The position numbers were made by a program, and so were the translations under genes. The notes beneath the pieces are model-generated. The model saw only the letters and a list, made by a program, of their open reading frames with translations. It was not told the origin of the DNA and made no database searches. From positions 1-27,134 of the forward strand of contig WAKA01000221.1 of the NCBI GenBank assembly GCA_015523565.1: a DNA stretch of 27,134 nucleotides, given 5' to 3'. This document shows, in pieces, positions 3,848-23,870 of the stretch (its first letter is position 1; each line of letters starts with the position of its first letter). The stretch comes from Candidatus Heimdallarchaeota archaeon. Its GTDB lineage: Archaea > Asgardarchaeota > Heimdallarchaeia > Heimdallarchaeales > Kariarchaeaceae.

Positions 3848-4237
3848 CTATTTCTCGTCAATTACTTCATAACCCTCAAGCCATTCTTTGTTTGTGAATT
3901 TTTCTGTGGGTTTAGCAGAGATAAGACCAGAAGAGATGGATTGAAGTCCTAAAGAGGTTCGTTCAATTGCCAAGCCTGTTTTGTTTCCAACAACCTTAAT
4001 TCCTTCAATTGTGCCTTGGATCATTCCTACAGACATTGGCAGGATTCCGCCAGATGAGTTAGACAGGATTCCGTCAATCATTCTGCCTGCAATCCGTAAA
4101 GGAGCAAGAGAGATTTCTCGTACAGTTAAGGTGATGCCTGCGGCAATTTCACTGATTCCGTCTGTAATTTTGGTCATTCGACCTTCTTCAAAGGGTTTTG
4201 CTTGCTGTAATTGCCCCAATATATTAGCGAAATCCAT
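3848..4237 (-). CDS. Hypothetical protein, Gly/Ile-rich amphipathic helices
   Basis: 129-aa ORF with ATG start. BRE/TATA-like GAAAGG-TTTATCTA about 23-36 nt upstream on the minus strand. Confidence 0.7.
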   Translation of the reverse strand: MDFANILGQLQQAKPFEEGRMTKITDGISEIAAGITLTVREISLAPLRIAGRMIDGILSNSSGGILPMSVGMIQGTIEGIKVVGNKTGLAIERTSLGLQSISSGLISAKPTEKFTNKEWLEGYEVIDEK

Positions 4238-4265
4238 ATCATTATTGTATCATAAGTACTAGATA

Positions 4266-4303
4266 AACCTTTCACATTAGGATATTAAAATAACCTTTCA
4301 CAT
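4266..4303. repeat. 12-bp direct repeat AACCTTTCACAT (4266-4277, 4292-4303)
   Basis: Exact duplicate read from the sequence in the intergenic gap below nuoN. Confidence 0.8.
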
Positions 4304-4310
4304 CGAGATG

Positions 4311-5777
4311 TTAGAATAATGTTGAGAATACATCTTGAGGAGTTATGAAGAATACAATAACAGAGAAGAAAACGGTCAAGACAGTCAGCAAGACCATCAA
4401 TGCCTTTAGAGGTGTTGCAGGAACCAATGGAATGTCATTTGATGGTTCGTCCAGAATTACCCTTGCCAATTTGACATAGTAATAGACAGAAATGGCGCTG
4501 CCAATTGCAAACACAAATGCAGTAGCCCAAGCAAGAGTTGTGTTGGTGTTGACTACTGCAATGAAGAGGAAATATTTGCTGACGAATCCACCAAGGGGGG
4601 GAATTCCTATGAGAGAGAATAGGGCAAGTACCATGGTGGTTCCCACGACCTTGTCTTTCTTATAAATTCCCCTGAAATTTTCCATATGGTCATTTTCAAA
4701 TGAATTGACAACAATAAGAGCGCCTGCAATCAGGGTTCCTTTCATAAGGATGTTTGCCACTATATGTAAAATTGCGGCATACAAAGCCAGTGCCTTCAGT
4801 TCACTTTCATTGGGCAGACCAGTCGCTTGAGCATATGCAACGAGGGAAATCGCGATATATCCTGCGTGAGCAATGGATGAATATGCAATCAACCGCATGA
4901 CTCGATTTTGGATCGCGGCCATGCCATTTCCGACAAGGATTGAAAGGATGACAATCAGTCCCATGACAGGGCCCCATACATCGGTATCATTGACAAAGCT
5001 GATCATGAACATTTGGAAGGCAAATGCGAATGCCATTTTTTTCGATGCAACAGCCAAGTAATTAACCATGCTAACAGGAGCACCAACATACACGTCACTT
5101 ACCCACCAATGGAATGGGACAAGTGAGAGCTTGAAGGATGTTCCGAACAGGATGAGGAAGATACCGACATTCTTGAGGGGTTGGCTGTTATTTAATGCCA
5201 AAGCTGCAAAAGTCAACTGACCGGTTGCACCATAAACAAGTGAAATGCCATATACAATTATTCCAGAAGATATTGCACCGAGCAAGAAAAGCTTGACGCT
5301 TGCCTCTGTTGCCTCCCTGCTTCTCTTTCGGTATGCGACCATTCCGTAAATCGGGATAGCCATCAGTTCAAATCCCACATAGAGGGGCAACAAGTGATTA
5401 GATGCGGCAATGACAATTCCCCCTGCATTTGAGATCATAAGAAGGGATGCCCAGACACCGAGGTCTTTTTGGACAGTGAAATCATATGCGGCACTGAATA
5501 TCACAAGAATTGAAGCGCTTAGTCCGATGATTGAGAAGATTTGGTAGAAGATGCCAAATTTGAACATTGGCAGTACTGTTTCGGATGGAATAAGGTCATT
5601 GGTTTTTGCGACCAGCAGTATTGCAAGGAGCAATGTGGCAGATGTGATTGAAACAACGAATTTTCTATTGCTTGCAGCATCTTTTGTCACCAAGTCCGCA
5701 ATCAGGACAAGGATGACTCCGGCAAAAAGGGCAAGTACCGGGGAAAATGCTGTAAAAGCTACAGGGTCAACAGCCAT
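4311..5777 (-). CDS. nuoN: NADH-quinone oxidoreductase (complex I) subunit N
   Basis: Antiporter-like subunit motifs GFELMAIP, EASVKLFLLGAISS, FKLSLVPFHW, RLIAYSSIAHAGY, SLIGIPPLGGFVSK. SD-like AGGAG upstream. Confidence 0.93.
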   Translation of the reverse strand: MAVDPVAFTAFSPVLALFAGVILVLIADLVTKDAASNRKFVVSITSATLLLAILLVAKTNDLIPSETVLPMFKFGIFYQIFSIIGLSASILVIFSAAYDFTVQKDLGVWASLLMISNAGGIVIAASNHLLPLYVGFELMAIPIYGMVAYRKRSREATEASVKLFLLGAISSGIIVYGISLVYGATGQLTFAALALNNSQPLKNVGIFLILFGTSFKLSLVPFHWWVSDVYVGAPVSMVNYLAVASKKMAFAFAFQMFMISFVNDTDVWGPVMGLIVILSILVGNGMAAIQNRVMRLIAYSSIAHAGYIAISLVAYAQATGLPNESELKALALYAAILHIVANILMKGTLIAGALIVVNSFENDHMENFRGIYKKDKVVGTTMVLALFSLIGIPPLGGFVSKYFLFIAVVNTNTTLAWATAFVFAIGSAISVYYYVKLARVILDEPSNDIPLVPATPLKALMVLLTVLTVFFSVIVFFITPQDVFSTLF

Positions 5778-9306: not shown

Positions 9307-9973
9307 AAACAGTTTCTTTTCTTGGATCAAAACTCAACAGCGGCATAACTAAATTTGAGATCATTATCCTTTGGAAAATTTCATTTGTATCAAGATCCGA
9401 ATTTTTTTTCCCCAATTCATTTATCTTGGATGTAAAGGCGGTAAAAGCCTCTTGGATTTCCATAAGCTCCTTTTCAGAGGCGGCATTGACAAAGGTAAGA
9501 TTACCTGAAAGAAACATTTTTGGCATTTTAGAAGAAGATTTCTCATCTTGGAGTTTCTCAGCCAAGACCTTTGCATTCTCTTCAATATAGTGGGCGGCAT
9601 ATAGCCCAAACCTTTGTGTAATGATGGCAACAGTTCTAAGAATGGCTCCAATTGTGGTAAAGAAAGAAGAATCTTTGTTTTTAAGCCCCTGTTCAAATTG
9701 TTTCTCCCCATTCTTCAGAATTATGTCCAATTTGTCAGTGATGCGGTAATATTTTCCACGTTTATCAGCCATTTGCTGATCAAGCTCAATGTAACCTTCC
9801 TCAATCAGTTTTTTTAGGTGAGGGAGACATGAAGGAGGAGAAATCCCCATGACTTTTGCAATTTGCTTAAGATTAAGAGATCCATATGTCCTCAAAATAA
9901 GGATGATTGACATTTTTGTTTCCTGTTTGAGAAGTTCCAAAAAAGCAGACAATGAAGGTTCAGAACTGGACAT
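9296..9973 (-). CDS. ArsR/SmtB-like winged-helix regulator with C-terminal extension
   Basis: wHTH: LKQETKMSIILILRTYGSLNLKQIAKVMGISPPSCLPHLKKLIEEGYIE...KYYRIT. Divergent from the OPT transporter. Confidence 0.85.
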   Translation of the reverse strand: MSSSEPSLSAFLELLKQETKMSIILILRTYGSLNLKQIAKVMGISPPSCLPHLKKLIEEGYIELDQQMADKRGKYYRITDKLDIILKNGEKQFEQGLKNKDSSFFTTIGAILRTVAIITQRFGLYAAHYIEENAKVLAEKLQDEKSSSKMPKMFLSGNLTFVNAASEKELMEIQEAFTAFTSKINELGKKNSDLDTNEIFQRIMISNLVMPLLSFDPRKETVFNQ

Positions 9974-10027
9974 TTTACATAATCCCCTGATTTTTTGCTT
10001 TTAATAATGTTTATATGATCGAAATAA

Positions 10028-10059
10028 ATTAGGAAATTTAATAAATTAGTTTTCCTAAT
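10028..10059. promoter_or_regulatory. Tandem palindromic operator between regulator and OPT gene
   Basis: ATTAGGAAATTTAAT (10028-10042) and ATTAGTTTTCCTAAT (10045-10059). The second is the reverse complement of the first at 13 of 15 positions. Confidence 0.65.
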
Positions 10060-10064
10060 ATTAT

Positions 10065-12023
10065 ATGAGGAGCATGGCACAAATAGAGAAAGAAAAAAAG
10101 GAAAATGAAAGTTACAAAGGAAAGGTGCTTTCAAATCCCTCTGAAAGCAACAGCTTTATTGGGGATGATAGCACCACTGGAAAAGAGGAAAAAGATTCAC
10201 ATCTGACGTATATTCTTTTTTGGGCGGTCATTATAGGCTTAGTGATGAACTGGCTTTCATTGTATCTCAATATTTCCATGGGTCTTGTCAGTGTAGGTAT
10301 AGGGCCAATGGCGGTTCTTCTTATTGGAAAGCAAATTTTGCGTTGGAAACAACTGGACACCCGTCAAAACTTGGTGATCATTATGATTGCCTACGGGGCA
10401 ACACAGGCTGCGGAAGCCGCTATCGGGTTATTGTTTATGATATGGTTGACAAAAAATGCCGTTTTCTTTTTTGGAATTCCATTCAATCCACCTTGGTGGT
10501 TATTGCCTTCAGAAACAATTTTGTCAAAACGGACAATCCTGTCTTCGGAATGGGCAGTGCCACTTGCAGTTCATTATTTTTTGATGTTGGTTCCAGGGAT
10601 TTTAGGAATTATTTTGGGATATTATATGAAAGACAAGTTCATTCATGATGATAATAGCTACCCTTTTCCAAATATGATATCCCAAACATCGCAGGTTGGT
10701 GTGTTGACAGATGAAGCTGGGACTAGAGGTCCAATTTTTTGGAGAATTGCCAAATACGGGTTTATTGTATCACTTTTGACAATATTAGTTCCAGGGCTTT
10801 TTATAATTGACATTTCCAATATTCCAAAGGGTTTTCTTTTTGGGATCATGCTTGGACCAGTGGGGGTTTCTCTTTTTGCGGCGGGCATCTTGATTGGAAA
10901 ACCTAAAATAACGGTCACACCATTTTTTGTCTCATTCCTCGCATATTCTCTCCTTGGTGTTTTCTTTTATTCAGGTGGAACAGATATGGATTATTTTGAT
11001 TATTTCACAGTTTTGTTGCAAGATTACTATTTTGTGCCGGCACTTGCATTAATGCTTGGAGGACTAATTTTGGGTCCACTTGTGTTGGGGATGATCACCG
11101 CTTCAATTTTCAAGAAAAGCACACAAGAAAAGGAAGACAATGTTAAAGGTTCCATAGATAGTGATAATGAAAAAAACAGAGAACAGAGAAGAGACAATTA
11201 CGAAAATGATCAATTGGAAGATCATTCTGTTGCGGTGACAGGCAACAAGAAACTTATCACTGTTTTTGCAATGGGATTTGTTGCGATGGTTATTTTTGTG
11301 GACACATTAAACATATTGTCAGTTCCATTTTGGCTCATTGTTTTGTTAATTTTCTGGAATGTTATTCTTGGAACTGTTGTAAAAGGATTTGTCACTGCCG
11401 CAAGTGTTGCCAAGTCAGGATCTGCCATATCACCGCCATTTGTCTTTGATGTTGTCCCTATTTTTTTGGCAGGAGGGAGAGGGTTTACACCATATATTTC
11501 CATGCCTAATGCAGAGACAGATGGAGTCAGTGGAGTGATATCCGCCTTGAAGATTTCTCAAATGAATAACGTCAAGGAAAAGAACGCAATACATGCATAC
11601 ATTGCAGGATATCTTGCCACTTCATTGACCACCCCTCTGTTTGCCTTGATGATGTGGAGTGCATTTGACATAGGAACCGCAAAATTCCCTGCACCTGCCT
11701 TTCCAATTCAAGGTGCAATTCTTGCAGGTTTTGCATCAGGCGATATTGAATCCTTCATTAACATTAAATTGTTTTTGATTTTCCTGTTGGTGTCGATCCT
11801 TGTATCTGGGCTTGGACAGGACTTTATTTTAGGGATGATCATAGGGTTGTTGTTTATACCGCATATGGCATTTCCCATGGCTTTAGGAGGAATAGTGAGA
11901 ATATGGATGGAAAGAAAATACGGTAAAGAGAAAGCAAGTGAAAAATCGGTAAATCTTGGACCTGCATTAGCAACAGGAGCGTCTTTTGTAATTCCAATCA
12001 TGATTGTGATTGCATTGCTATAA
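10065..12023 (+). CDS. OPT/YSL-family oligopeptide transporter
   Basis: Many TM segments with OPT-like motifs LYLNISMG, YPFP, FDIGTAKFPAPA, MIIGLLFIP, GGIVR, ALATGAS. Start may instead be the ATG at 10074. Confidence 0.75.
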   Translation: MRSMAQIEKEKKENESYKGKVLSNPSESNSFIGDDSTTGKEEKDSHLTYILFWAVIIGLVMNWLSLYLNISMGLVSVGIGPMAVLLIGKQILRWKQLDTRQNLVIIMIAYGATQAAEAAIGLLFMIWLTKNAVFFFGIPFNPPWWLLPSETILSKRTILSSEWAVPLAVHYFLMLVPGILGIILGYYMKDKFIHDDNSYPFPNMISQTSQVGVLTDEAGTRGPIFWRIAKYGFIVSLLTILVPGLFIIDISNIPKGFLFGIMLGPVGVSLFAAGILIGKPKITVTPFFVSFLAYSLLGVFFYSGGTDMDYFDYFTVLLQDYYFVPALALMLGGLILGPLVLGMITASIFKKSTQEKEDNVKGSIDSDNEKNREQRRDNYENDQLEDHSVAVTGNKKLITVFAMGFVAMVIFVDTLNILSVPFWLIVLLIFWNVILGTVVKGFVTAASVAKSGSAISPPFVFDVVPIFLAGGRGFTPYISMPNAETDGVSGVISALKISQMNNVKEKNAIHAYIAGYLATSLTTPLFALMMWSAFDIGTAKFPAPAFPIQGAILAGFASGDIESFINIKLFLIFLLVSILVSGLGQDFILGMIIGLLFIPHMAFPMALGGIVRIWMERKYGKEKASEKSVNLGPALATGASFVIPIMIVIALL

Positions 12024-17479: not shown

Positions 17480-19531
17480 ATGAGTTCTTACATTGGATTG
17501 AGGACATCTCTTGAGTTCAGTGCCAAGTTGGATGGGAACAGATTTTATATTCCCTCAAAGTTTAAGGAAATAGAAATTGGGAGCCTCATCCATTATTCAA
17601 TTGTCTCTTCAGACAATGCACCTCCAAAAGGAATTATCAAGGGAACAGTGATGAAAAAGAGACTGGTGTCAATACCCAAGGGATATGTACCCGACAACAA
17701 AAATGTAGTTGTAATCATTTTTGAAATATTCTATCCAATAAGAATTGAAGTAAAAAAGACATTTCAAAGTAGGGTGACTTCCCGTAAAACAATTCAACTC
17801 CCAAAAATTCTGGGATTGGCACCAGGGGATTTCGTGATTGGGAAAGTAATGTCAAACATAACAAAAAACCAAGAATTCCATGAGAAAGCAAGTTTCATGC
17901 AAAAGGTGACAAAAACAGGGGCGATCACACTTCCATTAAAACCAGATCAATTCCGTCCAAAAGACAGGATAGAATATGAAGTGGATTATATTATTAGGTC
18001 AGCGGAAAACATTGAGGAAAGCATTCCCTCGAACATCAGAATGGATATGACCTTTGGCTGGTCAAACACAGAAATAGAAATAATCTTTTCGACAAATCTT
18101 TTGGTTGATGTATCAAATAAGAAAATTGACCTCAAAGAGGGAGAAAACGAGAAAATAGTTGTTGATATGAGTGAAACAGAAGTTGCCATTACAATCTATT
18201 GGTGGCATCAGCAAAAACGACTTGCCTTCCTATTTTTTCAGGTGGAGGGCGAAATTGAATCCTTAGGTTCTTTTATTCAGAGCCTTGTCTATTTCAAGAA
18301 ATCAGAAATTGAAAATCTTCCAGTCAGCATGTTGAATCCGCAAACGCTAGAACGGAAATACAAGAGATTATTGTCTACCATGCACACCAGCTCACAAAAG
18401 CCAGCAATGGCATTGCCGATAAATGAGTTCACTCCTGCGGACATATTTGACCGAACAAAATTCAGCACTGAAGAGGCCACCATCCTGTCTATACTTTTGA
18501 CAAGACTGATAGAAGGCAAGCCAATCACGTCAATAAAGGATTTGAAAGGGTATCCCCTCAATATGGATGATCCAACATTGACGGTAAATGAACTGGTGAC
18601 AAAAGGATTTTTGAGCAAGACCATCGTAGACAATGAGGAAATCGGTTATACAATTCCAAGGTTTTACTTGAAGTCCACCATGAAATTTTTGGAGCAACAG
18701 AAATCATTATTAATCATCATCCATTCCTTTGGAGGAGGTGTGGCAAAAACCACCCTATCCGTAAATATGGGGAAAACCTTTGTTGACATGGGGCTAAGAT
18801 GTGTCGTCATAGATTTCGATTTTGTCAATTCCAGACTTATCCCGATATTTGAGCCATATCTTGAAAAAAGTGAAAGACATTATTTGAATGACTTTTTGAA
18901 TGGAAGTGCAAAAACAGAGGATATCATTCAGGAAACATCAATCAAGTCATTGGATGTAATATTGACGAGTCCAAGTTCAGATATTTTGGGTATCAAGAGT
19001 GCCCACCGTGAAAGGCACGCAGAGTTGCTGGAAAAATACATTGAATTGTTTTCGCAATTAAAAGACAACTATGATGTAATAATAGTGGATGCTGAAGGGT
19101 CATTGGATTTGAATATACTGAACATTTTCCTGTTGGCCGATTTAAGCATAATTCTTTCCAATGGCAATTCCTCAAGCCTGATTGGGCTTAAAAGCAGAAT
19201 TTCATTGATCTTGCAACGGATAGGTTTGGGAATAAGAAATGATGTGCTTGTACAGACACTTGTCCCAAAATCAAAAATGGAGTTGGCAAGAAGAAGGTTA
19301 CAGGATTGGGAAACAATATTTTCAGGCTATGGTGTCAGTATTTTTCCAGATCCAATAATTGATGAACCAAAGGTTCGAGAGTTAATCTATGAAGACAACT
19401 ATTTTTTGGAAAAAGAAACATTATTCCATAATTGGATAGAGAATTTTATGAAAAAAACGCCCAGAATTCAAAAATTTCTGGAATATAAAAAAAATTCAAA
19501 AGGAGTTGGCAAACAGAAAACCAAAGGATAG
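17480..19531 (+). CDS. Multidomain protein: four AbrB/MazE-like repeats, alpha/beta domain, winged helix, MinD/ParA-family P-loop domain
   Basis: Repeats at aa ~13-42, 53-82, 95-124, 139-171. wHTH at aa ~328-393. C-terminal HSFGGGVAKTT, VVIDFDF, YDVIIVDA and LADL motifs. Confidence 0.75.
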   Translation: MSSYIGLRTSLEFSAKLDGNRFYIPSKFKEIEIGSLIHYSIVSSDNAPPKGIIKGTVMKKRLVSIPKGYVPDNKNVVVIIFEIFYPIRIEVKKTFQSRVTSRKTIQLPKILGLAPGDFVIGKVMSNITKNQEFHEKASFMQKVTKTGAITLPLKPDQFRPKDRIEYEVDYIIRSAENIEESIPSNIRMDMTFGWSNTEIEIIFSTNLLVDVSNKKIDLKEGENEKIVVDMSETEVAITIYWWHQQKRLAFLFFQVEGEIESLGSFIQSLVYFKKSEIENLPVSMLNPQTLERKYKRLLSTMHTSSQKPAMALPINEFTPADIFDRTKFSTEEATILSILLTRLIEGKPITSIKDLKGYPLNMDDPTLTVNELVTKGFLSKTIVDNEEIGYTIPRFYLKSTMKFLEQQKSLLIIIHSFGGGVAKTTLSVNMGKTFVDMGLRCVVIDFDFVNSRLIPIFEPYLEKSERHYLNDFLNGSAKTEDIIQETSIKSLDVILTSPSSDILGIKSAHRERHAELLEKYIELFSQLKDNYDVIIVDAEGSLDLNILNIFLLADLSIILSNGNSSSLIGLKSRISLILQRIGLGIRNDVLVQTLVPKSKMELARRRLQDWETIFSGYGVSIFPDPIIDEPKVRELIYEDNYFLEKETLFHNWIENFMKKTPRIQKFLEYKKNSKGVGKQKTKG

Positions 19532-19544
19532 AAAAGTTTTTATT
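19531..19544 (+). promoter_or_regulatory. BRE/TATA promoter of the peptide-TPR cassette
   Basis: GAAAAG followed by TTTTTATT, with the TATA at -30 to -23 from the ATG at 19567. Confidence 0.6.
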
Positions 19545-19566
19545 TTGAATCAGAAGACATTGAATC

Positions 19567-19740
19567 ATGTACGGAAAAATATTTTGGAAAAAACTTTTGT
19601 TGGCTCTTCTACCTATGCTTGCTGGGATTTCACTTTCCATGGTCATGGCAGTGAACGGTATTTTGATTGCAGATCCTTGTGAAGACCCAGATCGTGTAGT
19701 GCCTGTCCCAATGTGTTGGATGGATCTCCCTAACCCCTAA
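19567..19740 (+). CDS. 57-aa secreted or membrane-anchored peptide precursor (absent from ORF track)
   Basis: Hand translation MYGKIFWKKLLLALLPMLAGISLSMVMAVNGILIADPCEDPDRVVPVPMCWMDLPNP. Basic n-region, hydrophobic h-region, acidic Pro-rich tail. Fills the intergenic gap, has its own TATA box, and stops 5 nt before the TPR gene. Confidence 0.8.
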   Translation: MYGKIFWKKLLLALLPMLAGISLSMVMAVNGILIADPCEDPDRVVPVPMCWMDLPNP

Positions 19741-19745
19741 AATCC

Positions 19746-21662
19746 GTGGTAAAATTGGGATTTTTCAAAAAACTTTTTCTTTCTGGTCAAATTGAACAGT
19801 TTTGGGAAGAAGCAAAGAATTTCAAGGAAAAGGAAGACATTTTAGCGGATTATTTTGTCAAAAAGAGTATATGGGGAGAATATGACACAACAAATATTTC
19901 ACGGGATTACAAAGTGATTGTCACATCCGTGATAATGGGGAACAATAACGAAGAAGTTGTCATAGAAGGTGCAGAAGCATTAGAAAGTTTGCTCTATGAG
20001 ATAAAGCATATTTCCAGCCTTGACGAAAAGGAGCTCATGAGATATGAACCACCAATCCAATATTCAAAAGTTGAAGGGTTTATCCAATCATTTGTTTTTG
20101 CTAAAGCAAAAAAATTCATGCCAAGTGACAGGCTAAAGGAAATTTTGGAGAACAGGCTATTTGAGGAAACAGACAGAATTGTCCAGATTAGGCTTGTCAC
20201 TCTTTTATTGGAATTAAACAAAAGCGACAGGGAGAAAACGATTGAATATCTGAAAAATCTGATACGATTGTACAAGGAATTGAAATTCAATGAACCATTA
20301 CCAAAGTTATATCACAATTTGGCATTTATTTATCAGAAACTGGGAGATTATATACAGGCAATGGATGCAGTAAATTTAGCGATTGGATATTGGAAGAAGC
20401 AAGACAGCCCAGACAAATTGACAACTTCATTGCACCTGAAGGTCGTTATTGAACAAAATTGGGGAAAACTTGAAAATGCCAAGAAAACCTTGGAAGAGGC
20501 AATGACATATGCAAATGAGAAATCCCTGCCAAAATTGTTGCATATGAGAGGACTGATAGAGGAAAATCAAGGAAACTACAAAAATGCAACCACATACCTA
20601 AAAAAAGCGATAAGCATGATTAGACCGACAGAAAGCCCATATCTTTGGACATATATCAATTTAGATCTTGCCATGATCTTGTTGGAGGAAGGAAACTATC
20701 AAGAGAGCGAAAGAATTTTCCAAAAATTAAAGGGAACAGTTCATGATAAGCTTCAAGGGGTTTTTGCATTGCGTTATGCAAAGTTCCTGTTGATGAAGGG
20801 GGAAGTATATAAAGCGCAGACATGGATAAATAAAGCCCATAAACTATTGAAGGAAAGCTCAAACCCGATTTATACGCCTCAACTCTTTCTTGTCTTGGCA
20901 GGAGTCCATCATTCACTTGGACAGTATGGAAAGGCATTGAATGCGTACAAAAAAGCCATTGAATTGTATAAATCGCTGAAGAACAACTATCTTTTAATTG
21001 ACTGTCTTTTCGGGATGTTAATCACGTTAATTCAAATGAAAGACCTTGAGACTGCAAAAAGCATTCAGAAGGAAATTGAGAGCTTAGAGACCAAGGGTAG
21101 CTCAACTTACATTGAAAGTATCAGGGCACTGTCAAAAGCCATAATCCTCCTTAGCAAAAGACGTATCAGAGCCATGATAGAGGCAGAAGGCATTTTAAGA
21201 AACATCATTGAGAATAAGGAACTAGAGATTGCCTTGCGTTTTATTGCAACAGCATATTTGATAGAAATCCTATTAGTGGATTACCAGACATCCGAGGATC
21301 AAGAAATAATGAATGAGATCAATGAATTGGTTAGCCCGTTGATGGAACTTGGGAAAAAAACTGCACCCACATTTTTCATAGACAGTAAAATCCTGATTGC
21401 TCGAATCAATTTTGCACAGGGAGACATGGCGAAATCCATCGAGATACTTGATGAGGCATTGGAACTTGCAGAAATCTACGGATTGGAAAGCTATAAGGAA
21501 AAAGTGAAACATGAAATGGGATTGCTTGATGAAAAACTTGAGAGCATGACAATCCTTCTTGAGCAAAACAAATCAGTAAGGGACAGATTTCAAGAAGCAA
21601 AAATACACGACTATTTGAACACGATAGCAAATTCAGCGCTGGTATTACGACGTATGGAATGA
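19746..21662 (+). CDS. Tetratricopeptide repeat protein, cytoplasmic
   Basis: Repeated TPR units (LYHNLAFIYQKLGDYIQA, LLHMRGLIEENQGNYKNA, LAGVHHSLGQYGKALNAY). C-terminal helical region resembles the TPR family I recall as expanded in Asgard archaea. No signal peptide or TM segment. Confidence 0.88.
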   Translation: MVKLGFFKKLFLSGQIEQFWEEAKNFKEKEDILADYFVKKSIWGEYDTTNISRDYKVIVTSVIMGNNNEEVVIEGAEALESLLYEIKHISSLDEKELMRYEPPIQYSKVEGFIQSFVFAKAKKFMPSDRLKEILENRLFEETDRIVQIRLVTLLLELNKSDREKTIEYLKNLIRLYKELKFNEPLPKLYHNLAFIYQKLGDYIQAMDAVNLAIGYWKKQDSPDKLTTSLHLKVVIEQNWGKLENAKKTLEEAMTYANEKSLPKLLHMRGLIEENQGNYKNATTYLKKAISMIRPTESPYLWTYINLDLAMILLEEGNYQESERIFQKLKGTVHDKLQGVFALRYAKFLLMKGEVYKAQTWINKAHKLLKESSNPIYTPQLFLVLAGVHHSLGQYGKALNAYKKAIELYKSLKNNYLLIDCLFGMLITLIQMKDLETAKSIQKEIESLETKGSSTYIESIRALSKAIILLSKRRIRAMIEAEGILRNIIENKELEIALRFIATAYLIEILLVDYQTSEDQEIMNEINELVSPLMELGKKTAPTFFIDSKILIARINFAQGDMAKSIEILDEALELAEIYGLESYKEKVKHEMGLLDEKLESMTILLEQNKSVRDRFQEAKIHDYLNTIANSALVLRRME

Positions 21663-21687: not shown

Positions 21688-22389
21688 ATGTCACCAAGCA
21701 AAAAGTCTGTCATGCGAAACCCATTCAGGAAACAGATAAGAACTGCAAACTTGGAAGACTATGGAGAGCTTTCCCCAAAAGAACTTCGAAAGAAACAGCG
21801 TATCCCGCCAGGACAAAGACTTGCCAAGAGATGGCCAGTGCTATCCGCAGAACCGACACCAAAATTCAATGGGGTAGATTGGGATGTCACTGTTAACGGG
21901 CTGGTGGAAAACCCGACCACTTGGACATGGGAAGAGTTCAAGAAACTACCAAAGGTGGAACAGGTCAGCGACCTGCATTGTGTAACTACATGGTCATTAT
22001 TGGATCAGAAATTCGGAGGAGTGGCTTTCAAGACAATAGTGGACATTGTAAAACCCCTGCCAGAAGCAAAGTTTGTCACTTTCGAGGCATACAGTGGTTA
22101 TACAACAGCATTGCCTCTTTATGGTGGTTATCTCGATGAAAATGATGTGCTTCTTGCGTATGAGCATGATGGAAAACCGCTTCCACCAGACCATGGGGGA
22201 CCGCTCAGATCACTCGTACCGCAGCTCTATCTTTGGAAATCGGTCAAATGGCTCACAAAAATGACATTCACGGATGTTTGGGAAAGAGGGTTCTGGGAAG
22301 TGAGAGGATATCACCAAAGAGGAGACCCTTGGCTTGAAGAAAGATACAGTTCACAAGAAAGGGTTAGAAGGCGAAACCAAAAGTTATAG
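21688..22389 (+). CDS. Sulfite-oxidase-family molybdopterin oxidoreductase (YuiH-like)
   Basis: Motifs IPPGQ, DLHCVTTWS (Mo-ligating Cys), PLPPDHGGPLR, YLWKSVKWL, GFWEVRGYH. Confidence 0.92.
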   Translation: MSPSKKSVMRNPFRKQIRTANLEDYGELSPKELRKKQRIPPGQRLAKRWPVLSAEPTPKFNGVDWDVTVNGLVENPTTWTWEEFKKLPKVEQVSDLHCVTTWSLLDQKFGGVAFKTIVDIVKPLPEAKFVTFEAYSGYTTALPLYGGYLDENDVLLAYEHDGKPLPPDHGGPLRSLVPQLYLWKSVKWLTKMTFTDVWERGFWEVRGYHQRGDPWLEERYSSQERVRRRNQKL

Positions 22390-22463: not shown

Positions 22464-23870
22464 TCATTCCACCACAGGATAAAGCGTAACAACTTTTTTT
22501 TGCCTTTTCCTAAGGATAATCATGGCAATAAGCACGACCCCGACACCAATAGTAAGCCACCAACCATATGACAAATATGGAACACCAACATCGGCAATTG
22601 TGACATTATAGTCAATTATGAATTGACGGGCACCCAAAGCAATCCCCCCTGCAAATGGGTCGTATTTATACTCTTGGGCGAACACCCACAGTTTTCCCTC
22701 CACATCGGCTACGGCAAGGGGAACAAAATACACGGTAAGTCCGTCATTACTTTCCTCAAAAGGAATTTCAAATGGAACAAGTGAAGACCCATTTGAATAA
22801 AATCCCAGCAACTGACTTGTCCTGTTCTCAATAGAATATTTTGATGCAATTTGCAAACCTCGAACAGCCATGGGAATAAGATATGGAGCCATTTTCGCAA
22901 AGGCAATCTCAAGGGGATTTGACTTTTTCGGCAAGGGAATGCCCTCATCATAATAGGTGCCACGCAATAAGGTTTTATTGCCTTGCAACAGCATGTATTG
23001 AAAAGTGCTGTTCTTATAAGTGACCCCAAGGGAGATGTTCCTTGCAATGTCAATGGGATATGTGCGTGTAAAAACAATATTTGGGAAATAAGTGCCAATG
23101 AATGGAAATGAGATTTCTGAAAGAGTGAAGTTTAAGGTGCTTGGATCAACCTTTCCAACCACCCTTTCTGAAACGTTCGGATAATATTCGGTATCCCAAG
23201 AGATCAAATAAATCAAGCCGTCTGATGCAATCATTTCATTCCTATCCTTGAATGTGTATCGCGGGAAATAATATGTAGAATTGGCGATGATATTACCATT
23301 AGCCGTATCAATCCTGAAAATTCCAATCCCGTCTACTTTATTGGTTCGTATAATTAAGGATACAAAAAGGAAACCAGAAAAAAACTCTCCAAGGATAGCT
23401 TCTATAGTTGCTAACTGACCATCAGGGATTGCAGTGGAAAGCGCATCCCTGAGATCCAATCTCCAAAGTGAGGATAGATCATTCTTCTTCAGTTTATTAA
23501 TGGCATACAGAAATCCAACGTTACGTGTCAGGACATATGCTGATTCGTTGTCAACAGAAAGGATTCCCTCAATATTCTCTGAAAACGAACGTTTTGTGTA
23601 ATTCAGGTTCCTATTAATGGAAAGCAAAACAGTCTCAGTGGGAGAAAAATCAAATAACTGCCCAACAGCCACATAGGAACCGTCAGAGAAGGGCAAGACC
23701 TGTTTGAACTCATAGCTTGCCAAACCAGAGGAATTCATGATGGTATATGGAAACGTTGCAGGAGAGGTTAAGGAATTTTCATTGTTTGTATCATAAAACC
23801 CAAGCAAACCAGCAACCAGAAGCAACAAAAAAATTATTGACAACGCCGGGATGCTTTTGGAATATAACAT
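22464..23870 (-). CDS. Cell-surface glycoprotein: N-terminal signal, beta-rich body, C-terminal TM anchor
   Basis: Hydrophobic N-terminus, 12 NxS/T sequons counted by eye, C-terminal TM followed by RKRQKK. Confidence 0.75.
   Translation of the reverse strand: MLYSKSIPALSIIFLLLLVAGLLGFYDTNNENSLTSPATFPYTIMNSSGLASYEFKQVLPFSDGSYVAVGQLFDFSPTETVLLSINRNLNYTKRSFSENIEGILSVDNESAYVLTRNVGFLYAINKLKKNDLSSLWRLDLRDALSTAIPDGQLATIEAILGEFFSGFLFVSLIIRTNKVDGIGIFRIDTANGNIIANSTYYFPRYTFKDRNEMIASDGLIYLISWDTEYYPNVSERVVGKVDPSTLNFTLSEISFPFIGTYFPNIVFTRTYPIDIARNISLGVTYKNSTFQYMLLQGNKTLLRGTYYDEGIPLPKKSNPLEIAFAKMAPYLIPMAVRGLQIASKYSIENRTSQLLGFYSNGSSLVPFEIPFEESNDGLTVYFVPLAVADVEGKLWVFAQEYKYDPFAGGIALGARQFIIDYNVTIADVGVPYLSYGWWLTIGVGVVLIAMIILRKRQKKVVTLYPVVE

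Follow-up and report, generated by a model that had tools for sequence, protein, structure and literature searches.

The 27,134-nt stretch analyzed here (the window; contig WAKA01000221.1 of a Candidatus Heimdallarchaeota archaeon) contains a 57-codon open reading frame (ORF) between the genes for a MinD/ParA-type ATPase protein and a cytoplasmic tetratricopeptide repeat (TPR) protein. A preliminary description of the window had proposed that the small ORF and the TPR gene form a peptide signaling cassette resembling the RRNPP systems of Firmicutes. The window genome (G000) has ∼3,500 genes and is 90% complete; G001, G002, and G003 belong to the same genus and G011 to a sister genus. DNA of the locus also occurs in hydrothermal vent metagenomes.

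The peptide gene and its conservation

The ATPase gene is followed by a purine run resembling a B recognition element (BRE; 19532–19536) and by a T-rich TATA-like box (19537–19546), the center of which lies ∼26 nt ahead of the peptide ATG. A Shine-Dalgarno (SD) motif is absent from that interval, so that a leaderless transcript is implied for the peptide gene, in line with the BRE/TATA pair at leaderless spacing of the preliminary description. The peptide ORF ends in a TAA stop (19738–19740), and the TPR ORF begins with a GTG 5 nt later, at position 19746. The features of the locus are collected in Table 1.

Table 1. Features of the peptide locus, in window positions
Feature	Coordinates	Strand	Basis
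683-aa MinD/ParA-type ATPase protein gene	17480..19531	+	AAA_31, 6.3e-18 (Pfam)
Promoter-like element: BRE-like purine run and T-rich TATA-like box	19532..19546	+	Read from sequence
57-aa precursor peptide gene, stop included	19567..19740	+	ORF, orthologs, pN
Basic n-region, residues 1–9 (K4, K8, K9)	19567..19593	+	Alignment
Uncharged leader/h-region, residues 10–35	19594..19671	+	Alignments, leader HMM
Acidic Pro-rich tail, residues 36–57, putative mature/exposed part	19672..19737	+	Feature table, alignment
638-aa cytoplasmic TPR protein gene, candidate binding partner	19746..21662	+	TPR_12, TPR_MalT
233-aa molybdopterin oxidoreductase-domain protein gene	21688..22389	+	Oxidored_molyb, 1.2e-38 (Pfam)

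The n-region of the peptide is predicted to be cytoplasmic by the positive-inside rule. The leader holds the signature L-x-x-A-L-L-P, with an invariant proline (P16), and the tail has a net charge of −4, six prolines, a C-x11-C pair (C38 and C50), and the C-terminal motif P-N-P. Candidate signal-peptidase sites follow V-M-A (residues 26–28, before V), V-N-G (29–31, before I), and L-I-A (33–35, before D), and the precursor would probably be cleaved at one of them. This N-terminus appears to be of the export type, as had been proposed together with the first and the last of these sites.

Orthologs occupy the same slot in related DNA. In G001, a 58-aa protein (44% identity, E 7.9e-6) is encoded right after the ATPase ortholog where contig C130 ends; C130 shares its terminal 55 nt with the end of contig C114, where the TPR ortholog starts 4 nt past the stop of the small ORF. 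A profile search of 1.84 billion proteins located a 57-aa ortholog, P0006, on a contig with the order peptide, 3 nt, 664-aa TPR protein, oxidoreductase. The P0013 variant, which comes from another vent metagenome and was recovered through a 90% cluster, has 58 aa: all 57 residues are identical, and an extra Gly codon follows Cys-50. The window-type cassette is thereby known from G000, G001, P0006, and P0013, with gaps of 3–5 nt between peptide and TPR genes in the window, G001, and P0006. The 233-aa oxidoreductase gene is found at the same position on the G001, P0006, and P0013 contigs and is absent there in G002. Residues Y2, G3, K4, K8, K9, P16, G31-I32-L33, P37-C38-E39, C50, and P55 are invariant in the three diverged orthologs, and gene callers annotate the ORF in GCA_027071915.1.

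Because synonymous sites are saturated between the window and either G001 or P0006 (proportion of synonymous differences, pS, 0.63–0.82), dN/dS is unusable, and only the proportion of non-synonymous differences (pN) was compared. Peptide pN is below the pN of the neighboring TPR gene in every pair (0.24/0.30, 0.38/0.49, and 0.33/0.48). The G001 and P0006 peptides are 61% identical (pN 0.24, pS 0.66), and their TPR proteins share 51% identity (pN 0.30).

A short ORF in an AT-rich region, the product of which has no match in Pfam or NCBIfam, could be taken for a spurious reading frame in an intergenic spacer. We find this hardly credible, and conservation effectively refutes it: the reading frame, length, Cys pair, and end motif are kept in four assemblies, conservation of the protein equals or exceeds that of the flanking gene, the single indel is one in-frame codon, and the peptide belongs to a family of ∼18 members with promoters or strong SD sites. 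As judged from these comparisons, the 57-codon ORF is a real conserved gene under protein-level constraint, in agreement with the coding role that the preliminary description gave it. When the peptide or the TPR protein was used as query in word-based homolog searches, nothing but the query itself was returned, and peptide look-alikes in the ESM Atlas (scores 0.77–0.78) are unnamed and hence uninformative.

Between the window and the P0013 contig, the peptide ORF has no non-synonymous and one synonymous change next to the in-frame codon insertion. This amounts to 1 change in 171 nt, or 1 in ∼38 synonymous sites, compared with a pS of 0.28 and a pN of 0.045 in the TPR gene. The peptide gene lies in a low-divergence tract of ∼700 nt (∼19110–19790), and divergence from the related vent population is 13–15% in the middle of the ATPase gene, ∼3% at its end, and 0.6% in the peptide gene. 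Almost invariant synonymous sites, together with the small size, single hydrophobic helix, and basic N-terminus that the peptide has in common with small single-pass membrane proteins and type I toxins, might suggest a toxin-like peptide under RNA-level control, the DNA of which is conserved on account of an overlapping regulatory RNA. This is very improbable, as the tract extends ∼450 nt upstream into the ATPase gene, the peptide gene stretch neither folds into a stable RNA (z +1.41) nor matches Rfam, and at deeper divergence the protein is conserved and the DNA is not. The family-wide Cys pair, the acidic Cys-loop tails, and the signal-peptidase-like −3/−1 sites are foreign to type I toxins, as would be co-transcription with a 638-aa gene.

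A lineage-restricted family of precursors

The window peptide belongs to a lineage-restricted family of ∼18 precursors of 40–71 aa. They are characterized by a K-K-L-x-I-A-L-L-P leader, an uncharged span of 17–26 residues (which tabulates longer where the first charged residue falls within the tail), small residues at −3 and −1 (such as A-S-A, V-S-A, G-S-A, and V-N-G), and a tail of ∼13–44 aa, usually with a C-x7-15-C pair. In a 14-sequence alignment the proline corresponding to P16 is invariant, and the K-K pair two to three turns ahead of it and the cysteines are near-invariant; all 18 tabulated sequences have a positive n-region (1–5 Lys/Arg), a hydrophobic h-region, and small −3/−1 residues. 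The h-region is longer than is typical for Sec/signal peptidase I signal peptides.

Profile members were found in four of 400 Asgard genomes (G000, G001, G002, and G011), and one further weak match among the 400 lacks the family features on inspection. The family profile gave 11 matches in the 1.84 billion proteins, which added close variants only. G000 has five members, on contigs C221 (the window), C36, C193, C161, and C227. A hidden Markov model (HMM) of the leader matches five small ORFs in G000 and no large secreted protein, and the leader is thus a trait of the family and not the local signal peptide.

Archaeal class III signals carry a (K/R)-(G/A) motif immediately before the hydrophobic stretch. 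No family member has a Gly or Ala at the cleavage position, and the hydrophobic stretch directly follows K-K-L. A class III (type IV pilin-like) signal was rejected for the family, as was a lipobox; lipobox-like S-G or S-A ahead of Cys occurs only in a pair of members linked to a HEAT-repeat gene (see below). A VKOR homolog, an extracytoplasmic disulfide-forming enzyme, is encoded in G000 (C36:15022–15429, E 1.4e-17) and makes extracytoplasmic disulfides in the two-Cys tails feasible; a Thioredoxin_4/DsbA-type search of the 90% complete G000 returned no match.

Several siblings have neighbors of other kinds. A 49-aa sibling with a C-x10-C tail is encoded on contig C161 of G000 (L084 2249–2398, −) and contig C32 of G001 (L076 1477–1626, −). 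Its first Cys comes right after the lipobox-like S-A or S-G, and the gene lies immediately upstream of that for a 126–133-aa HEAT_2/PBS-lyase HEAT-repeat protein, a pair kept in both genomes. The 48-aa sibling on contig C227 of G000 (L085, 9657–9803) has no Cys, and 76 nt downstream (9880–11850) follows the gene for a 656-aa HAMP/MCP-signal chemoreceptor (methyl-accepting chemotaxis protein, MCP); the pair is also present on a 47.6-kb vent metagenome contig (L107), probably from a very close relative. The 56-aa sibling on contig C36 of G000 (L064 3824–3994) has a Phe/Gly-rich C-x9-C loop. Translations of ∼3990–4320 on this contig are repetitive in several frames, which suggests tandem DNA repeats, and variants of this sibling in other metagenomes (P0009 and P0011) adjoin a leucine-rich repeat protein. 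As siblings adjoin a HEAT-repeat protein and a chemoreceptor, the phenomenon is broader than peptide plus TPR protein.

A conserved leader with a variable core in a patchy family is typical of secreted competition or communication peptides. The tails could accordingly belong to secreted disulfide-loop effectors (antimicrobial peptides of a bacteriocin- or halocin-like kind, adhesion or metal-binding peptides, or ligands of surface receptors), with the TPR protein acting as a regulator or an immunity or maturation factor or being merely co-transcribed. As in Sec-dependent disulfide-loop peptides such as class II bacteriocins and eukaryotic-style hormones, the precursors are short, more than half of each is a Sec-type leader, and a conserved leader precedes a hypervariable core that has one Cys-Cys loop; this lineage-specific, patchy family has three to six different members per genome. 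Most siblings lack a TPR neighbor, and the gene of one immediately precedes that of an MCP chemoreceptor whose extracellular part is large, a pairing whose recurrence in a very close relative is not independent. Adjacent to the window gene, however, there is no transporter, immunity-type membrane protein, or modifying enzyme, and similarity to described bacteriocins or halocins was not found in Pfam or NCBIfam. A peptide-TPR pair kept through deep divergence at three loci is moreover hard to explain without a direct functional tie. We consider an effector of this kind distinctly unlikely for the window peptide.

Linkage to TPR genes and properties of the partner proteins

Outside the window-type cassette, family members are linked to TPR or TPR-like genes at three loci. 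On contig C53 of G002, 12 nt separate the gene for a 63-aa member from that for a 684-aa TPR_12/TPR_MalT protein downstream; contig C158 of the same genome encodes a 71-aa member and, 16 nt further on, a TPR_12 protein whose gene is cut by the contig end. The two TPR proteins are paralogs (27% identity, E 2e-22), and both are generically similar to the window TPR protein. On contig C213 of G011, a 51-aa member on the opposite strand is flanked by two related genes and is convergent to one of them, which is weakly TPR-like. A peptide-TPR fusion by read-through or frameshifting is ruled out by the conserved stop and by relative frames that vary between cassettes: the two genes share a frame in P0006 and at G002:C53 and are in different frames in the window, in G001, and at G002:C158.

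TPR-linked peptides form a recognizable sub-family. Their tails (n = 5) have a net charge of −3 to −5, compared with −3 to 0 in the other members, among which only that on G002:C117 reaches −3, and follow the pattern C-x8-15-(F/Y/M)-C with acidic residues behind it and a Pro-rich end in four of the five. All five genes have a TATA-like box centered 25–29 nt ahead of the ATG and no SD, and a GGAGG/GGTGA-type SD precedes seven of nine members not linked to a TPR gene. G000 has ∼19 genes with a TPR_12 match (E <= 0.001) among its ∼3,500 genes, and a rough binomial estimate puts the probability of adjacency by chance at three of ∼12 locus types in the order of 1e-4. If the cassettes were co-duplicated, the peptide-TPR pair has been retained down to <30% TPR identity. 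Recurrent adjacency in the one case, and retention in the other, argue for a functional tie either way.

The window TPR protein matches TPR_12 (4.6e-26) and TPR_MalT (1.9e-23) in Pfam. It has no N-terminal hydrophobic segment, and its top 19-residue window (Kyte-Doolittle value 1.89) is below transmembrane strength. Pfam returned no helix-turn-helix (HTH), RapH_N, RNPP-type, or other output domain. The absence of an export signal and of an HTH had both been noted in the preliminary description and stand. An AlphaFold2 model (predicted local distance difference test score, pLDDT, 80.7; predicted template modeling score, pTM, 0.74) is an all-helical solenoid over approximately residues 100–610, with the first ∼80 residues poorly defined. 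Non-synonymous divergence from the P0013 contig is highest at approximately residues 51–200. TPR orthologs are found in G001, on contig C88 of G002, and on the P0006 contig, and the TPR proteins of related cassettes have 657, 664, and 684 aa.

The best Foldseek matches of the model are APC5, TSK/BRU1, Ctr9, Tom71, and OGT (template modeling (TM) score 0.3–0.5), and a sequence profile search of the PDB returned kinesin light chain, TTC29, Rap phosphatase (E 3e-7, rank 13), Pins, and IFIT1. Both the sequence and the fold similarity are generic for TPR proteins. Clamps of the Hop/Tom70/Tom71 type, which bind the EEVD ends of Hsp70/Hsp90, as well as kinesin light chain and LGN/Pins are among the best matches of the solenoid, and the linked peptides end in acidic, Pro-rich tails; unlike in those systems, a mini-peptide dedicated to the TPR protein and encoded beside it would be the ligand, and the likeness is one of generic repeats only. 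We found no complementarity with the acidic tails in net charge or isoelectric point when TPR partners were compared with non-partner paralogs. In a PADLOC search of the window for known anti-phage defense systems, the TPR protein matched generic TPR models only (8.9e-7 and 2.7e-4), and the peptide and the ATPase protein were unmatched.

The TPR protein of G002:C53 (L063 9630–10184) ends in a Cys-rich segment with CxxC pairs that resembles a zinc ribbon and has no Pfam match. It could be an output or nucleic acid-binding domain, and the window TPR protein has no such segment. One locus is present in two assemblies of one sample (L099/L100), and its TPR gene appears either as one 664-aa product (ENA scaffold) or as two of 355 and 357 aa (GCA_964604935.1), likely owing to a frameshift or an assembly difference.

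The 683-aa protein encoded upstream combines an N-terminal β-rich region with a C-terminal MinD/ParA-type P-loop ATPase. The model of its N-terminal region matches the AbrB-type swapped-hairpin protein PhS018 (PDB ID 2glw; probability 1.0, TM 0.67 on the target), and the central region shows weaker longin/roadblock-like fold matches (FLCN and GATOR1), followed by a helical segment and the ATPase. Linkage of ATPase and TPR genes is kept in three genomes and in two orientations, the ATPase gene being directly upstream in G001 and divergent in G002. The G002 ortholog, inverted relative to the TPR ortholog, is spread over contigs C88 and C342 (L003/L034/L062) and has a stop codon near the contig end, and it may be a broken gene or an assembly artifact; next to its C-terminal piece lies a major facilitator superfamily transporter gene and no peptide gene.

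Proposed peptide signaling and its alternatives

The locus is a credible candidate for peptide signaling, on entirely genomic evidence. Our best explanation, which we advance as a tentative one, is that the TPR solenoid is the cognate binding partner of the peptide tail, the two forming a ligand-receptor pair that would work like Rap-Phr and be non-homologous to it. In the series of steps that we infer (export, cleavage, disulfide formation, direct binding, re-import, and output through the ATPase protein), the precursor would insert through Sec via its K-K-L-x-I-A-L-L-P hydrophobic leader. The basic N-terminus would stay in the cytoplasm, N-in/C-out insertion being expected from the basic N-terminus and acidic tail under the positive-inside rule. 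Outside the cell would lie the acidic two-Cys tail, which signal peptidase probably frees by cutting at a (−3,−1) site of small residues and in which a disulfide may close a loop. The peptide and TPR genes would form one leaderless two-gene unit that has diversified into at least three paralogous cassettes, and the tail, or a C-terminal fragment of it, would be the specific ligand of the co-encoded TPR protein. As the TPR protein is cytoplasmic, this requires re-import of the tail, and since it lacks a DNA-binding domain, the output would need a partner protein. For that role the neighboring AbrB-like/MinD-ParA ATPase protein, suggested by gene linkage, is the best candidate.

Structure prediction weakly supports binding of the tail. 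The complex of the TPR protein with tail residues 28–57 scores 0.37, compared with 0.01 for the best control, with contact agreement of at least 31% and a partner pLDDT of at least 43 in the complex runs. Of 80 solved complexes, 58 attained the mark, as did two of 110 mismatched pairs, and the passes with scores of at most 0.60 comprise seven of the 80 solved complexes and both mismatches. The tail-TPR binding proposed in the preliminary description thus scores above all controls, and the score lies in a range where passes are mostly wrong for pairings without prior support. Co-variation of tails and TPR proteins over six cassettes is unusable as a test, as identities from short semi-global alignments come out too high and only a few, interrelated pairs are available. 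Six genes for Opp/Dpp-type SBP_bac_5 binding proteins in G000 make re-import feasible and are permissive only.

The same components could be arranged without re-import. The peptide might be an uncleaved signal anchor that tethers or regulates the TPR protein, perhaps with the ATPase, at the membrane, or the TPR protein might be a pre-export chaperone or gatekeeper of the precursor tail. An uncharged span of 17–26 residues has transmembrane length, and all three orthologs keep the short cytoplasmic segment Y-G-K … K-K unchanged. Membranes are a common site of action of MinD/ParA ATPases, and the ATPase gene stays linked to the TPR gene. With 3–16 nt between peptide and TPR genes, tight coupling of translation would let both products be made in equimolar amounts, the fold matches of the TPR protein include a binder of acidic C termini (Tom71 with Hsp70/Hsp90 tails), and the weak support from complex prediction fits tail binding in the cytoplasm just as well. 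What speaks for an exposed tail instead is that the TPR-linked sub-family is defined by its tail whereas the cytoplasmic N-terminus differs between cassettes, that small −3/−1 residues come right after the hydrophobic span in every member, and that the two conserved cysteines and the VKOR gene point to an extracytoplasmic, oxidized tail. On balance, we regard an anchor or a chaperone client as unlikely.

How close the proposed ligand-receptor pair would come to RRNPP systems can be judged from a survey tool built for Firmicutes and their mobile elements, which looks for a propeptide of 10–100 aa, a Sec/PptAB signal (SignalP), a receptor of ∼250–500 aa, TPRs, and neighboring genes (PMC10075063). 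Three of these five features are present in the window (a small propeptide, a TPR receptor, and direct adjacency), and the 638-aa receptor is outside the length range. For the export signal, there are a basic n-region, a 26-residue uncharged span, and small −3/−1 residues, with which a signal anchor would also agree. Further likenesses are the presumed co-transcription of a small export-type propeptide gene with a cytoplasmic TPR gene, several divergent cassettes per lineage, and the presence of Opp-type importers; as in Rap, the TPR protein has no DNA-binding domain, and output would go through a partner protein. In contrast to known RRNPP systems of Firmicutes and their phages (such as Rap-Phr, NprR-NprX, PlcR-PapR, and AimR-AimP), the locus belongs to an archaeon, its peptide gene precedes the TPR gene, and its mRNA would be leaderless.

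A number of observations weigh against the ligand-receptor reading, the first of them against membership of the RRNPP group in a strict sense. The receptors have 638–684 aa, compared with ∼250–500 aa; Rap is a weak, generic match, and no RRNPP structure is among the Foldseek top 50; and the tails have 14–44 aa with two cysteines, compared with linear 5–10-mers. Given the lack of homology-level support and the differing peptide chemistry, the system is at best a functional analog of RRNPP systems, possibly of independent origin, and not a member. The reading of the preliminary description is thus partly supported: the layout (small propeptide, TPR protein, adjacency) agrees with RRNPP systems, and receptor length, homology, and peptide chemistry do not. 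A tail of 22–44 aa that is possibly closed by a disulfide is an unusual cargo for Opp-type importers and unlike known RRNPP signals. The uncharged span appears long for an h-region and would fit a signal anchor equally well. A pass at the complex score of 0.37 is more probably false than true, except for pairings that were likely from the outset. The near-identity of the peptide DNA in the low-divergence tract may stem from recombination, which explains it as well as selection does.

Further counterpoints come from gene distribution. The TPR ortholog of G002:C88 has no peptide gene, either through loss or because there never was one, and no such ORF is found in the ∼130-nt gap to the divergent ATPase gene; the TPR protein can therefore exist without the peptide. 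Seven other TPR paralogs in G000 and 17 paralog loci in other genera likewise lack a peptide neighbor of this kind. Small ORFs beside TPR genes, the recurrence of which the preliminary description had named as a supporting sign, thus recur at G002:C53, at G002:C158, and, next to a weakly TPR-like gene, at G011:C213, and not at these other loci. Sibling peptides adjoin non-TPR genes (HEAT, MCP, and others). All data come from a handful of metagenome-assembled genomes, and the five runs with the locus are all DNA contigs of vent metagenomes, with no RNA run among them. The phyletic pattern, in contrast, speaks for the ligand-receptor reading: G003, of the same genus and 93% complete, has neither a TPR nor an ATPase ortholog nor any member of the peptide family.

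A broader, doubtful extension of the ligand-receptor reading would unite the family as a heimdallarchaeial system of peptide communication. Its members would be Sec-exported, disulfide-closed mini-hormones, each with a co-encoded sensor (TPR protein, HEAT-repeat protein, or chemoreceptor), in pherotype cassettes that differ between strains, and the TPR branch would act via the AbrB-like/winged HTH/ParA-MinD ATPase protein. In the literature searched, neither peptide-based communication nor peptide-TPR signaling has been described in archaea, in keeping with the earlier statement that no characterized archaeal equivalent exists. As the nearest prokaryotic kin of eukaryotes, these organisms would, under the broader extension, supply the first analog of RRNPP quorum sensing known from archaea. 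If the ligand-receptor reading is true, archaea evolved the combination of an exported propeptide with a cytoplasmic TPR sensor on their own, and the pair would offer a handle on social behavior in hard-to-culture organisms that are central to models of eukaryote origin. The candidate is unusually easy to test, as the peptides are short enough to be synthesized and the co-encoded soluble partners are defined. Should the likeness to RRNPP systems prove wrong, the family would still be a clean case of lineage-specific, fast-evolving secreted or membrane micro-proteins, which standard annotation largely ignores.

Two further features of the window lie outside the peptide locus. A tRNA gene is located at 1546–1619 (Rfam RF00005, 61.2 bits). 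Convergent with the operon, a 468-aa protein that has no Pfam match is encoded at 22464–23870 (−); a hydrophobic signal or anchor is present at its N terminus, and basic residues come after its C-terminal transmembrane segment. A 452-aa ORF that is similar by eye only lies directly after the TPR ortholog in G002.

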